NCBI GenBank assembly: GCA_951406725.2
Contig: OX597821.1
Span: 103,788,001-103,852,000 of the forward strand
From: Octopus vulgaris
Taxonomy: Eukaryota
Length of the DNA stretch: 64,000 nt
Direction of reading: 5' to 3'
Position numbers and translations under genes: made by a program. Positions within the stretch are counted from its first letter, which is position 1, and the number at the start of each line of letters is the position of its first letter. The notes under the pieces are model-generated. The model did no database searches. It had not been told where the DNA came from and worked only from the letters and a program-made list of their open reading frames with translations. This document shows positions 6,714-52,945 of the stretch, piece after piece.

Positions 6714-7200
6714 GATTAGTGGTACAACAAGCACCAAAAGTTCCTGGAAATAGCAGTCGATACAATATACTGGCAAAGACGTGTGAGTGCAATAAACATG
6801 AAAAATTTGTCTTACCTGTGGAAAGAACATTATATAAATGGACAACCCAGAATCGGAAATGCAATACCTAGGTTTCGGACTCTTCAGATACTTTTGTCAA
6901 CGTAAATTTGATCAGTCTTCATCAGCTGCATTTACCTAGACAATATTTCAAATGTTGCTACATTAATGCCAGTATACTCGCCTGAACGCTTAGCCGTTAA
7001 CAGAACGGGAACAGTGACAATTGTTCAATGAAAAACAAAATATTGTAATACAGATGTATTACTTTCCAATAAAATAAAGCACCGTAAATGTAGAATTATA
7101 AACATGAATATAGATTAGTGGTACAACAAGGCACCAATATTTACGGGAAATAGCAGTCGATACGTATACGACGCTATCGTAAAGCTTCACTGCGTATATA
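6714..7200 (-). mobile_element. Non-coding hammerhead-bearing element with partial direct repeat (~400-bp spacing)
   Basis: GATTAGTGGTACAACAAG..GGAAATAGCAGTCGATA at 6714 and again at 7113; hammerhead between them; same family forms a palindrome at 29844-30083. Confidence 0.7.
6857..6933 (-). ncRNA. Type I hammerhead ribozyme (predicted)
   Basis: Minus strand: AAATGCAG-CTGATGA-aGACT..AGTCc-GAAA-CCTAGG-TA-TTGCATTT; 8-bp stem I, full core, palindromic stem III ACCTAGGT, GUA cleavage triplet. Confidence 0.85.
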
Positions 7201-7456
7201 CAAGATGGAATTAATAGGCTCTAGTCCAGATAGCAGCACTCATTTCTATGTATTAGAAACAGCTGTAAGAAACAATTGTTGGGATTTGTGTTTAAAGCTT
7301 TTTTATTCATTCTTCTTGTATTATGATTCTTTTGTATGAATTCTACGTATACTAACGCATTTCCACATGTATATCCCGTAAAAGTTATGTTGTATGATGT
7401 CATATGGTAGCCGCTAAATGTAGAGGTGCTTATGAAATGCACGTTACAAGGTAGAC

Positions 7457-7612
7457 TTGGCTGTGTAGTAAGAAGCTTGCTTCCAAGTCACATGGTTCCT
7501 GATTCAGTCTCACTGGGTGGCACCTTTGGCAAGTGTCTTCTCCTATTCCCTCGAGCCGACCAAAGCCTTGTTAGTGGGTTTAATAGACGCAAACCGAAGG
7601 AATCTCGTCGTA
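7457..7612 (+). mobile_element. SINE family A, 5' half
   Basis: TGGCTGTGTAGTAAGAAGCTTGC...GGCAAGTGTCTTCT. Confidence 0.8.
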
Positions 7613-7681
7613 CACACACACACACACACACACACACATATATATATATATATATATATATATATATATATATATATATAT

Positions 7682-8248
7682 AATTAATTAAGGGTAGAAA
7701 TTGATATTTATCAATTAAGACCAGTGGTCTACCATATTAAAAAAGAATCCGAAGATTAAAATATTTATATATACCAATTAAGGACTGAACACGAAAAGTG
7801 GACAGTCAACATGCTAGATATAGACGTCAAATCGCCATTCTCCACAAAAGATTATGTTCTCAGATCAAACTCAGCACAAAACAAAGCAATAAACAAGTGA
7901 AAATATACGAAATAAGATAATTACTCATGTACTGATCAGTTTCGGCTATTATTATCCGCAAGGATAACTGCAGCCTTCATCAGCATGGTCCGCTATAAAT
8001 GCATCTAGTCCAGCAAATTGCATTTATAACGGACCATGCTGATCAAGGCTGCAGTTATCCTTGCGGATAATAATAGCCGAAACTGATCAGTACATGGGTA
8101 ATTATCTTATTTCGTATATTTTCACTTGTTTATTGCTTTGTTTTGTGCTGAGTTTGATCTGAGAACATAATCTTTTGTGGAGAATGGCGATTTGACGTCT
8201 ATATCTAGCATGTTGACTGTCCACTTTTCGTGTTCAGTCCTTAATTGG
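7682..8248. mobile_element. Fold-back hammerhead element in (TA)n: 230-bp inverted arms (7774-8003 / 8019-8248), 15-nt loop
   Basis: Arms are reverse complements with few mismatches; (TA)n on both sides; left arm extends further to 7682. Confidence 0.9.
7926..7987 (-). ncRNA. Type I hammerhead ribozyme (predicted)
   Basis: Minus strand: CATG-CTGATGA-a-GGCTG ca GTTATCC ttgc GGATAAT aa TAGCC-GAAA-CTGATCAG-TA-CATG; palindromic stem III, GUA triplet. Mirror copy on plus strand at 8035-8096 has CTGATCA (G8 to C). Confidence 0.85.
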
Positions 8249-8324
8249 TATATATATATATATATATATATATATATATATATATATATATATATATATA
8301 TATATATATATATATATATATATC

Positions 8325-8608
8325 GGAGACACCCTTCGGTCACGAATGACCATGGGATTGCACCTAGGAAGTTACCCTCCCAGGCACGAGTCCGAGCAAG
8401 TTTGTTTATGGAAGACTAGCAATTGCCCATGCATATCACCCCCTCTCCACGCCACCGATGTTATCCAGGGGAAAGGCTTCGCATCAGTGACGTTGCAACT
8501 CATTTCTACAGTTGAGTAAAATGGAGCAACGTGAAGTAAGGCGTCTTGCTCAAGAACAGAACACGCAGCCCTGTCCGGGATTCGAACTCACAACCTCGCG
8601 GTCGTAAG
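8325..8608 (-). mobile_element. tRNA-headed SINE family B
   Basis: Aligns by eye with the more complete copy at 23371-23696; B box GAGTTCGAATCC on the minus strand. Confidence 0.85.
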
Positions 8609-8795
8609 GTATGTATGTGTGTATGTTTGTCTTTGTGTCTGTGTCTGTCCCCTATCGTCGCCGCTTTACAACCGGTGTTGGTGTGTTTACGTTCCCGTTA
8701 TCTAGCGTTACGACAAAGAGTCTGATAAAATAAGTATTCAGCTTAAAAATAAGTCCTTGGGTCGATTTTTTCGACTAAAAACAGTTTGAGATGGT

Positions 8796-9323
8796 CATCA
8801 TCATCATTGTTCGACCGTGGTCGAGACAATGGAATTTACTATGTTACGCCAGACTTCACGGTCCATCATAGCATTACGGAGGTCCTGTTGCTGGATGCCT
8901 GTATCCCTGGAGATTACATCAGGGTAGGAGAGTGTGCGCCCTCTGGTATTGCGAGTAGATGGCTTCCAGAGGAGAAGAGTAGAAATTACTTCTTTTTCAG
9001 CTCTACAACAATGTCCAGCAAACTGGACTCTCCTACCTTTCACAAGAGATGACACAGGTGATAGTTTCCCATATATTTGCATTTTGGTTGGATGGCGCTT
9101 CCACGAGAGATTTTGAGCTCTCATAAGGAGGCGAGTGTAGGTGCCATCCAACCGCCTCTCAAGCTTCTTTGATAACGTCCAGGTTTCTGAGCCATATAGT
9201 AGAATTGGTTCGACTGTGGCTTTGAATATTTCAAGTTTGAAGTCTCTACTTAGATTTGATGACCAGATCTTATGCATGCCATTACAGGCTGACCAGGCCA
9301 TACCCTTTCTAGTTAGAAAGTCT
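8796..9323 (-). mobile_element. RTE-clade LINE, 5'-truncated (RT C-terminus), inserted in a SINE A tail
   Basis: ORF 8804-9301 with ILLYGSETW and QFAGHCCR motifs, (TGA)n tail, 11-bp TSD TTTGAGATGGT at 8785-8795 and 9324-9334. Confidence 0.92.
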
Positions 9324-50410: not shown

Positions 50411-50919
50411 GCCTATACCTCTATGTTATGCTCGAAATTTGCAATTCGCCACATCCACTCTGCTAGTGGCTGTATTCTAGATATCCACCTGTCGTACTCT
50501 TGTTCATAAACACATGCTATCTATGCCCGTCCTTTGTCTCAGACACTCAGCGATCAGTTGTGCTCCCTTTACAAGTTACTCCTTGTTAATACTCAGACTC
50601 CTTACTACTGTCGCTCTCTCTAAAGACATAAAGGCTCCAAACACTTCATAACTTGTAATTAATTGTATTTTGCACTCCAGCCAACCAATGATTCTCTACA
50701 TCGTATATGAGGTTATTCTACATGGTAAACATAGCAGCTAAATCCCTTTCAAATCACACCCTACTTTCTTAAAATAGATGTCATGATGGATAATGAAATT
50801 CTGATAACAATAGTTTTGTAAACAGGAAGGGAATAGAGCAAAAATAAAAAAAAAAAGTGATTTGAAATCGTGAATGCTATTAATCATAAAGCCGCTCAAT
50901 CAATGTCAAATATAATATC

Positions 50920-51515
50920 GCCATGATGATGATGATGATGATGAATGACGATGATGATGATGACGACGACGACGACGACGATGATGATGATGATGATGAA
51001 GATCAGGATCATGATCATCATCATCATAATCGCCGTCGTTCGCTGTTGCCCTTAACCCCTTCGTCATCGCCATCTACATCCGCCTCCTTATAATCATCGT
51101 CGTCGTCGTCGCCATCGCGTTCGTTGTCGTCACCAGCCTCGTCGTCAGCTTCGCTTTTGCCCCGCCGTCGTTGTCTTCGTCCTCGTTGTAAACGTCGTTA
51201 TTATCATAATTCCCATCATCATCATCATCATCACCATTATCATCATCATCATCATCATCATCATCATCATCATCATCACCATTATCATCATCATCATCAT
51301 CATCATCATCATCATCATCATCAACATCATCATCAACATCATCATCATCATCATCATCATCGTCATCATCATCATCATCAACATCATCATCATCATCATC
51401 ATCATCATCATCATCATCATCACCATCTTCGTCGTCATCATATTTATTATCACCATCGTTCTCATTATTATCAACATCGGCAGCAGCAGCAGCAGCAGCA
51501 GCAGCAGCAACAACC
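50920..51515. repeat. (GAT)/(CAT)/(CAG) trinucleotide microsatellite block
   Basis: Direct inspection. Confidence 0.95.
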
Positions 51516-51912
51516 ATCTTAACAGCAAAAAAAAAAATGTCTGCGCTCTTTACAACTTACTCACACTCACACTCACACTCAAGCAAAACTTGTACTCAAC
51601 ACACATAAAATACGGCAGTTAGTTAAACAGTTGCATGTTGCTAAATTGTAATGCGTATAAATCAAATCACATCTCTTGAAACCCCCATGCGTGTGACCCC
51701 TTTAAATGCAAGATGCGCATACAAAAGCACACACACAATGGGTATATGCAAATATAAATGGCCACATACTGCACATATAACAAAACAGTATTGTAATGTT
51801 GTGTACGGTGACTATTTGCATAAACGAATCAATTTACATTCATTGCCAGTGTGAACTCTGTTCATTGTTGTGCGTGCATGCGTTTATTAAGTATATCATA
51901 GGCAGTAATATA

Positions 51913-52150
51913 CAGGGTGGCCCAAAAGAAGGTTTACAGTTATCACACGTAGACACTTTAAATTTCTTTTAAATCACTTTATTACATTTAAATTTCTACC
52001 TTACAACCTGAAAAGGGCGCTTGACAAAATTAACTTAATTAGCATAGATTAATGGTTTCATATTTTTTTATAATTAAGATCTAAATTGTTAGTATATGAA
52101 AGCAAAAAAAAATAGCTGAATAACTGTAAACCCACTTTTGCGCCACGCTG
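51913..52150. mobile_element. Tc1/mariner-type MITE
   Basis: TA|CAGGGTGGCCCAAAAGAAGGTTTACAGTTAT ... ATAACTGTAAACCCACTTTTGCGCCACGCTG: imperfect ~31-bp TIRs, non-coding interior. Confidence 0.8.
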
Positions 52151-52297
52151 AATACATACACACACACACACACACACACACACACACACACACACACACA
52201 CACACACACACACACACACACACACACACACACACACACGCACACACACACACACACACTCATACAGACACACACACATATATTGTTTTATTCTTCT

Positions 52298-52686
52298 TTT
52301 CTTTTACTTGTTTCAGTCATTTGACTGCGGCCACGCTTGTGTTCAAGAAATCGACCCTAGGACTTATTCGCCGTAAGCCTGGTAATTCTATCGATCTCTT
52401 TTGTCGAAGCGCTATGTTACGGGATCGCAAATACACCAGCATGGCTTGTCAAACGATGGTAGGAAACACACACACACACACACACACACATACAGACACA
52501 TACGCACACACACGCAAACACACACAAACACGCGCGCGATGGGATTCTATTCAGTTTCTGTCCACTCACAAGGCTTTGGTCAACGCTATAGTAGAAAACA
52601 CTTGCCCAAGGTACCACTCAGCGGGACTGAATCCAGAACCATGTGGTTGGAAAGCAAGCTTCTTACCACACGGCTACACATGCGCC
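52298..52686 (-). mobile_element. SINE family A
   Basis: Head, core and tail all recognisable. Confidence 0.85.
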
Positions 52687-52884
52687 TACATGTTTCATGA
52701 TTACGGCCATGCTGGGGCACAGCCTTGAAGAGATTTTTGTCGAAGGAATTGTGCACAGTACTTATCATTTGAATCTAAAGACTGTTACTTAATGTATCGA
52801 TCTCTTTGTTTCTATCTATCTATCTATCTATCTATCTATCTATATATATATAAATGTAATATGTGACTATTACTCGGTAGCCAT

Positions 52885-52945
52885 GATAAAACTCCGAGTT
52901 TTGGATGCCGAGGTAGAAATCCACGGCACCATCACTTCAGTTATC
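52885..52945 (-). ncRNA. Decayed type I hammerhead in a ~200-bp island between TA-rich tracts
   Basis: Minus strand: GATAA-CTGAAGT-gatgGTGCCG..CGGCATcc-AAAA-CTCGGAG-TT-TTATC; three stems retained, core changed at A9 and G12. Confidence 0.55.

Follow-up and report, generated by a model that had tools for sequence, protein, structure and literature searches.

The 64-kb stretch of the Octopus vulgaris genome analysed here (contig OX597821.1, positions 103,788,001 to 103,852,000; hereafter the window) is rich in microsatellites and belongs to a 2.80-Gb assembly of 227 contigs. Six of its sites, labelled A (6.9 kb), B (7.9 kb), C (16.6/18.3 kb), D (17.2 kb), E (38.4 kb) and F (52.9 kb), contain sequences that resemble type I hammerhead ribozymes and lie at or near (TA)n tracts. 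Below we compare them with Penelope-like elements (PLEs), retroelements whose terminal repeats (pseudo-long terminal repeats, pLTRs) carry such ribozymes, and with retrozymes, which are non-coding hammerhead repeats. The features of the six sites are as follows, Hydra-1 and Hydra-2 being autonomous PLE families of the same genome.

6716..7204, minus strand: A, a partial tandem in which a non-coding hammerhead unit of 431 nt is present about 1.1 times.
6857..6933, minus strand: hammerhead of A, with 8-bp stem I, CUGAUGA, palindromic CCUAGG stem III and GUA.
7684..8261: B, a 506-nt non-coding unit inserted head-to-head, with a (TA)n tract on either side.
7923..7989, minus strand: hammerhead of B, type I, intact.
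16420..16697, minus strand: long arm of C, with a hammerhead at 16608-16651 and a Hydra-2 pLTR tail; the palindrome centre is at about 16680.
16695..19346: large inverted duplication around the C centre, in which 16695-16819 mirrors 19222-19346 (100%) and 17790-17852 mirrors 18891-18953 (98%).
16884..17689: D, a single non-coding unit of 596 nt joined to an inverted arm of 180 nt and flanked by (TA)n tracts.
17172..17271, minus strand: hammerhead of D, with 6-bp stem I, CUGAAGA, long stem II, CGUGCG and GUC.
18200..18520, both strands: palindrome of C, centre 18360, hammerheads at 18289-18332 (minus) and 18388-18431 (plus), both arms short.
38406..38520, minus strand: E, probably a 115-nt PLE 3' end, hammerhead at 38431-38491, abutting (TA)30 and related to F and to the Hydra-1 pLTR.
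52853..53051, minus strand: F, which we identify as a 5'-truncated pLTR (3' end) from an older subfamily of Hydra-1 PLEs; the core of its hammerhead (52885-52945) is broken.

A strict descriptor of the type I hammerhead (stem I of at least 4 pairs, CUGANGA, stem II, GAAA, stem III, UH) finds six motifs in the window, at -6925 (A), -7983 (B), -16647, -18328 and +18392 (C) and -17265 (D), while 100 local dinucleotide shuffles of the window give a mean of 0.02 and a maximum of one. The motifs are real and far above chance, and we treat them as predicted ribozymes. Site E, which has an intact core and stem I and a weak stem II, fails the descriptor, and the core of the window copy of F is broken (CUGAAGU...AAAA). 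The claim of the initial annotation that all six sites fold as type I hammerheads stands for A to D, and only in part for E and F. With a slightly relaxed descriptor, 15 motifs were found in 80 evenly spaced 10-kb stretches of the genome (800 kb in total), compared to 0-3 in each of 10 shuffles. The density in the window is about five times that of this sample, from which some 30,000-85,000 motifs can be extrapolated for the genome (Poisson range 8.4-24.7 per 800 kb), about one per 800 kb being expected by chance. A (TA)6 tract is present within 200 nt on the 3' side of 11 of the 15 sampled motifs and on the 5' side of six, against a background of 13.2% (P=1.7e-7 for the 3' side, assuming independence, which does not fully hold). 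In the window, B, C, D, E and F directly abut (TA)n, while A abuts (GA)13 followed by (TA)19. Both the excess over shuffled sequence and the enrichment next to (TA)n anticipated in the initial annotation were found, with A adjoining its (TA)n tract at one remove.

The families are dispersed in the genome; the candidates returned by a first look numbered 1875 (D), 1651 (A), 1760 (B), 1251 (C) and 3007 (F), figures that are not to be read as copy numbers. The loci studied in detail are the best matches to the window copies and are biased to young, full-length copies, with long-tailed copies favoured for B and palindromes for C. Among these, the hammerhead core is intact in 10/13 copies of A (older copies), 46/47 of B, 52/57 of C, 62/66 of D and 10/14 of F. 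In the 13 related copies of A, 93.9% of the stem cells are paired and two stem I pairs are changed on both sides; the covariation score (0.098 vs 0.067) was reached in none of 500 shuffles, a frequency which the kinship of the copies prevents from being read as a probability. The palindromic stem III is retained across subfamilies of B, C and D despite variants. No hammerhead family is present among the best 150 of the 249 Rfam matches listed for the window. Rfam scored C as a sub-threshold plant microRNA (miRNA), and we rejected the miRNA matches in the window, which reflect hairpins and microsatellites. Two further motifs were observed: one at 39045-39090 on the minus strand (CUGAUGA...GAAA), which has no stem I and no match in the 800-kb sample, and one at -11933, which fails the strict descriptor.

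The affiliation of site F was reached through an endonuclease fragment located beside an F copy, which led to an intact element, Hydra-1. It is a 2590-bp unit present in tandem, with units 99.4-100% identical and (TA)n at the end; its 708-aa open reading frame (ORF) codes for a reverse transcriptase (RT) plus a GIY-YIG endonuclease, and a hammerhead is located in its terminal repeat. F is 82% identical to the Hydra-1 pLTR over 150 nt, and an F-type hammerhead is found downstream of the endonuclease, in sense, in 14 of 19 endonuclease-coding Hydra loci; of the remaining five, one has the upstream part only, one an inverted arm only and three no F-type hammerhead. E is 72% identical over 86 nt both to F and to the Hydra-1 pLTR, and 72-80% identical to the pLTRs of endonuclease-coding Hydra loci; a search with E mostly returned a neighbouring family, E2, described below. 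We identify F as the end (pLTR) of an autonomous PLE of the Hydra clade, while E is probably the end of a PLE of the Hydra-1 type. An ORF antisense to the ribozyme, first suggested by locus L074, was rejected: this locus is an internal inversion, and the sense arrangement is seen in L080, L113 and the set of 19 loci. In young Hydra-1 copies, the hammerhead core reads CCGAAGA instead of CUGAAGA.

Altogether, the genome contains three autonomous Hydra families with ORFs of 708, 840 and 960 codons, all of which carry pLTR hammerheads, have (TA)n as target and occur as tandem or inverted copies. They are diverged, being 37-47% identical across the RT-containing part (37% between Hydra-1 and Hydra-2, the 840-aa family), and two of the three contain asparagine-rich inserts and long 3' UTRs (untranslated regions). 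All three ORFs contain the motifs by which the Hydra clade is defined in section 11 of Craig et al. 2021 (PMC8557442): an RWK-like motif (RWK in Hydra-1, KWK in Hydra-2, RWR in Hydra-3), DKT, a CxCX5C linker, and CxxC and CxH around the end of the endonuclease. The Pfam GIY-YIG match reaches E=0.013, which is below the cut-off. The three families likely belong to the Hydra clade, and elements of this clade are intact and recently copied in this genome. A fourth young PLE family is Neptune-like, with an open frame of at least 811 codons. Proteins of the four families have no match in the window itself; their young autonomous copies with long open frames were found outside it:

L103-L104, L276-L296, L303-L309 and L327-L336: young copies of the four autonomous PLE families.

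The units of A (431 nt), B (506 nt) and D (596 nt) each contain one type I hammerhead and have a GC content of 0.34-0.36; their longest stop-free frames are 79, 104 and 67 codons, respectively, and show no match to the four PLE proteins. Head-to-tail arrays reach six units in B and nine in D, with no ORF between the hammerheads. The units of an array are nearly identical: for D, identity is 99.8-100% within L112, also across the inversion, and 98-100% within L109, compared to 96-97% between these two arrays. Contigs from three sequencing runs presumed to be RNA cover the D unit in patches, a result to which we give no weight. A occurs only as 1.1-1.6 units and is thus only weakly tandem; its best copies elsewhere are 81-88% identical, and it ends mostly at +187 to +205 from the cleavage site and is rarely inverted. 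In the window, the left arm of B has a long tail (+266) and the right arm ends at +171; D ends at +301 and +207. These positions recur elsewhere. B is inverted in 19 of 23 loci, and 13 of the 19 end at +169-171 and at +260-266, positions that include up to 10 nt of TA microhomology; (TA)5 follows within 24 nt at 28 of 42 B 3' ends. D is inverted in 14 of 18 complete loci (two more ran off the fetched stretch), seven of the 14 ending at +188-207 and at +293-308, and 27 of 32 D 3' ends are at (TA)n. In both families the ends thus fall at two fixed sites about 100 nt apart, while the inversion points vary from locus to locus and none is exactly at the cleavage site. B and D also share a tail motif. 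We classify A, B and D as non-LTR retrozymes bearing PLE-type ends. Between (TA)n tracts at 16318-16400 (minus strand) lies a tail of 82 nt that belongs to a D-like subfamily and shares 95% identity with D.

Site C has a different structure. It is an ORF-less palindrome, 97-100% identical among the best matches, and it is 88-91% identical to Hydra-2 pLTRs in seven of 20 fetched loci. In one locus (L296), the pLTR matches C with 99.6% identity over 242 nt and is followed by the start of the Hydra-2 ORF; the exact combination of a C-type ribozyme and the Hydra-2 5' UTR occurs at this one site genome-wide. Another locus, L194, where C lies beside a Neptune-like RT, was rejected as a pLTR link, since intact Neptune-like copies end in a different repeat. 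The 30 C loci comprise 25 with two arms and a recognisable centre, three with substitutions at the same centre and two whose left arm is cut. In 24 of the 25 two-armed copies, a long arm and a short one surround the common centre, so the equal, symmetric terminal inverted repeats of miniature inverted-repeat transposable elements (MITEs) are not seen; nor is the tandem arrangement of retrozymes, with head-to-head palindromes in 28 of the 30 loci and tandems in none, in a set whose query favoured palindromes. The unpaired base at the centre is T in 12 copies, A in nine and altered in three. An 18-nt segment at the centre is common to the C copies and absent from the coding copy L296, which points to a single founding fold-back. 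Of 24 copies outside the window, 10 have variants that occur in both arms, and two subfamilies are mixed as to the centre base; this fits either a centre that re-forms at each insertion or conversion between the arms. In the window, where the inverted arms of C are 18127-18359/18361-18593, the 16.6- and 18.3-kb sites are most simply explained by one C insertion and a later local inverted duplication that mirrored about 1 kb of flank. D is present in the left arm only of this duplication and is best read as inserted there afterwards.

A second palindromic family, K, lies outside the window:

L176 at about 1900-2400, and L234-L245: family K, a hammerhead palindrome of about 200 bp at (TA)n, with its centre at stem I.

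K has 580 candidates. The same 2-nt deletion is present in its short arm in 12 of 12 loci, and the centres are often deleted, so that K seems to be inherited as a whole palindrome.

These results alter several claims of the initial annotation. The inverted duplications of B, C (see above) and D were confirmed at their coordinates (7761-8003/8019-8261 for B and 16972-17150/17511-17689 for D), but the hammerhead in the second arm of B (+8033-8099) has a core mutated to CUGAUCA and the inverted arm of D contains no ribozyme. The elements had been described as having no shared internal sequence, which is incorrect for E and F and, given their common tail motif, for B and D. The description of them as unrelated, non-autonomous and non-coding fits A, B and D as regards coding, B and D being clearly tandem, whereas F, E and C match the pLTRs of coding PLEs. 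That a site is simply the pLTR of an autonomous Penelope is what we found for F (14/19 loci), probably for E, and by half for C, an ORF-less palindrome with a 99.6% identical pLTR. The broader proposal of dense, diverse, microsatellite-targeted hammerhead retroelements tied to PLEs is supported.

Much of this system is known from other work. For Octopus bimaculoides, a Hydra-1_Obim element with a hammerhead and a (TA)n preference is listed in Files S1 and S2 of Craig et al. (PMC8557442), and by eye the 708-aa ORF resembles its printed protein. The stem III of F, CUCGGAG, is also found in the printed Hydra-1_Amil sequence. The families described here share with the Hydra-clade PLEs of that paper the RT with a GIY-YIG endonuclease at the C terminus, the RWK/DKT/CxCX5C motifs, the pLTR hammerhead, the (TA)n target, and the partial-tandem and inverted insertions with a one-sided tail. 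They differ in that three diverged families are present in one genome, while one octopus Hydra family is listed there, and in that the tails are 60-100 nt rather than 30-40; among the supplement rows examined from the same paper there are no derivatives without coding capacity. Metazoan non-LTR retrozymes (Cervera and de la Pena 2020, PMC7229834; Li, Clavereau and Pollet 2026, bioRxiv 10.64898/2026.07.22.740005) likewise consist of tandem, non-coding units, each carrying a single type I hammerhead, for which a PLE origin and PLE-dependent mobilization were proposed. Li et al., whose sampling includes 31 vertebrates, three insects, one coral and no mollusc, tie them to Xenopus PLE pLTRs. The GC content of A, B and D (34-36%) is below the 45% limit used for retrozymes, and in size they fall within the range given by Li et al. 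(51-972 bp). Unlike described retrozymes, the arrays reported here combine microsatellite targeting with two fixed ends and head-to-head inversion; the words "microsatellite", "inverted" and "target site" are absent from the main text of PMC7229834. Circular retrozyme RNA was shown in coral, mussel and axolotl, while the octopus units are known from DNA.

PLE inversions with head-to-head pLTRs, junction palindromes and opposite-strand hammerheads 100-700 bp apart were described by Arkhipova et al. 2013 (PMC3846280) and Cervera and de la Pena 2014 (PMC4209133), as were pLTRs acting in trans on unrelated sequence. C resembles these inversions, but they were presented as properties of single insertions, whereas C is a high-copy, ORF-less family with a fixed foreign centre. 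A curated O. vulgaris annotation comprises 190 Penelope-like families, 6.83% of the genome (PMC13282606), and the terms "hammerhead", "ribozyme", "retrozyme" and "Hydra" do not appear in its main text and one supplement file. The literature accessible to us contained no description of retrozymes in octopus, of PLE palindromes that form families with a fixed centre or of retrozymes with a PLE integration signature; they may be recorded in sources beyond our reach (Repbase, Dfam, subscription journals and bioRxiv supplements). The general system had already been described (Hydra-1_Obim, and retrozymes as PLE derivatives): octopus Hydra PLEs, retrozymes and the retrozyme-PLE link are published. 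The new part is the PLE end signature on retrozyme arrays together with the palindromic families, and the rest is mostly of known kinds.

We consider it likely that the sites are hammerhead-bearing ends and non-coding derivatives of PLEs, probably inserted into (TA)n by the endonuclease and RT of Hydra-clade elements. A mechanism of the following kind may be envisaged. The unit would be transcribed, and hammerhead cleavage and ligation of A, B and D would yield a monomeric circle. The GIY-YIG endonuclease would nick both strands of the symmetric (TA)n, and reverse transcription would have two alternative internal start sites, located 100-300 nt downstream of the cleavage site, and might circle the template several times. 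The two cDNAs would then be joined head-to-head at variable points; the resulting array would be inverted, and only one of its ends would have a tail. Two fixed ends, outward arms and variable joints are what is expected from two-ended priming on symmetric (TA)n, and arrays of near-identical units fit the circular template proposed for retrozymes (PMC7229834). In vitro, the Poseidon PLE cuts both strands of AT-rich DNA and uses two internal RT start sites, which define the genomic tail, with no need for hammerhead cleavage (Frangieh et al., PMC11167929); the two-end signature of B and D matches the tail so produced. As for C, a Hydra-2 pLTR may once have folded back on a captured 18-nt sequence, and the product may now be spreading as a 410-490-bp palindrome, its ribozyme probably base-paired and silent.

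Several observations weigh against this interpretation. No coding parent of A, B or D was found among 117 PLE-coding loci of four families by non-exhaustive protein searches seeded from four PLE fragments and nucleotide comparison with these loci, which yielded only a separate copy of the B tail (L267) and a weak D-like neighbour (L107). The mobilising enzyme is thus one that we infer, and for A, B and D it could belong to the Neptune-like family or to an unsampled one. Several motifs contain a non-canonical stem II base (A.C, U.U or an extra base). In minimum-energy folds of the isolated motifs, A adopts an alternative structure and B, E and F are only partly hammerhead; those of C and D are three-way hammerheads. 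Finally, eight of nine Xenopus retrozyme dimers were uncleaved in vitro (bioRxiv 10.64898/2026.07.22.740005).

The most serious competing explanation, which we nevertheless regard as unlikely, is that the hammerheads are passengers, with PLE enzymes using uncleaved, multimeric read-through RNA as a template and no circle being formed. Hammerhead mutants of the Poseidon PLE inserted normally in vitro, unprocessed RNA being the main substrate (PMC11167929); no inner arm of B or D ends exactly at the cleavage site; and palindromic C RNA would be expected to sequester its own ribozyme. If the ribozymes were passengers, however, one would have to account for the retention of the core in 46/47 B, 62/66 D and 10/13 older A copies, for the changes on both sides of A stem I, for a stem III that stays palindromic across subfamilies, and for arrays of near-identical units, which fit a circular template. 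A quite improbable alternative is that all six sites are merely what truncation has left of autonomous PLEs, and that sampling missed the coding parents of A, B and D. It is true for F and probably for E; C does have a 99.6% identical coding counterpart, A mostly occurs as 1.1-1.6 units, and the four PLE families examined are few compared to the 190 Penelope-like families annotated in this species (PMC13282606). The ORF-free arrays of B and D, of up to six and nine units, refute it for these arrays, and the 18-nt centre of C, absent from the coding copy, and the single genomic site at which the C-type ribozyme adjoins the Hydra-2 5' UTR argue against it as well.

It is more improbable still that unequal crossing-over expanded the tandems as satellites and that the palindromes are MITE-like DNA elements mobilised by a transposase with TA as its target. 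C and K do resemble terminal-inverted-repeat elements with TA on their flanks, and remnants in the window that we take to be Tc1/mariner-like coding sequences also count for this alternative, as does the local satellite-like amplification of retrozymes proposed by Li et al. (bioRxiv 10.64898/2026.07.22.740005). Yet the arms of C are unequal in 24 of 25 copies, and the two positions at which they end are those of the parent pLTR; B and D combine variable inversion points with fixed outer ends, and the copies are scattered over most large contigs. Returning to PLE-driven retroposition, we tentatively suggest that Hydra PLEs mobilise both the circular retrozymes A, B and D and an as yet undescribed class of self-perpetuating, fixed-centre palindromes (C and K) by priming on both cut (TA)n strands. 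It is just as tentative a suggestion that the palindromes are MITE-like but reverse-transcribed, with a ribozyme self-silenced by pairing, and seed thousands of perfect double-stranded RNA (dsRNA) hairpins. The octopus lineage is known for heavy RNA editing, to which the dsRNA hairpins may be linked.

The window contains further hammerhead families, E2, G and H, which were missing from the initial annotation.

38518-38813, plus strand: family E2, whose 350-nt unit occurs both in tandem and inverted and has a type I hammerhead of its own.
37255-37400 (minus) and about 37700-37820 (plus): family G, an inverted pair; its hammerhead is minimal (GAAA-CG-UU) and lacks a stem III loop.
6500-6652 (plus), with fragments at 17790-17915 and 18830-18953: family H, a minimal hammerhead, often with a CCGACGA core, and (TA)n at the end.

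The E2 core is kept in 18 of 20 copies and broken in the window copy; most E2 copies are not at (TA)n, and the family thus probably uses the enzyme of another PLE. Family G sits among trinucleotide repeats, and G and H each have matches in seven of the 80 random stretches. Beside B and D-like arrays (L031, L148) there is a short palindromic hammerhead family (GAAA-CUCAGAG or CUCUCAG-UA) that resembles Hydra pLTR hammerheads. The window also contains remnants of long interspersed elements with endonuclease and RT frames at 20114-23224 (plus) and 8804-9343 (minus), presumably CR1-like and RTE-like, respectively, and, at 59369-59981 (plus), what we assume to be a mariner-like transposase remnant.

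The biology described here is that of selfish-DNA mechanics, and no host function is suggested. In annotation, palindromes of this kind may be filed as MITEs or miRNA-like hairpins. Two questions have been left open by earlier work: which enzyme moves animal retrozymes (PMC7229834), and how PLEs make tandem and inverted insertions biased to microsatellites (PMC8557442, section 15). Young non-coding families that have the ends expected of two PLE start sites, present together with intact candidate enzymes, make both questions testable in vitro. If our interpretation is true, the near-identical pair of C and Hydra-2 would provide a matched enzyme and substrate for PLE inversion and for the formation of retrozyme arrays.

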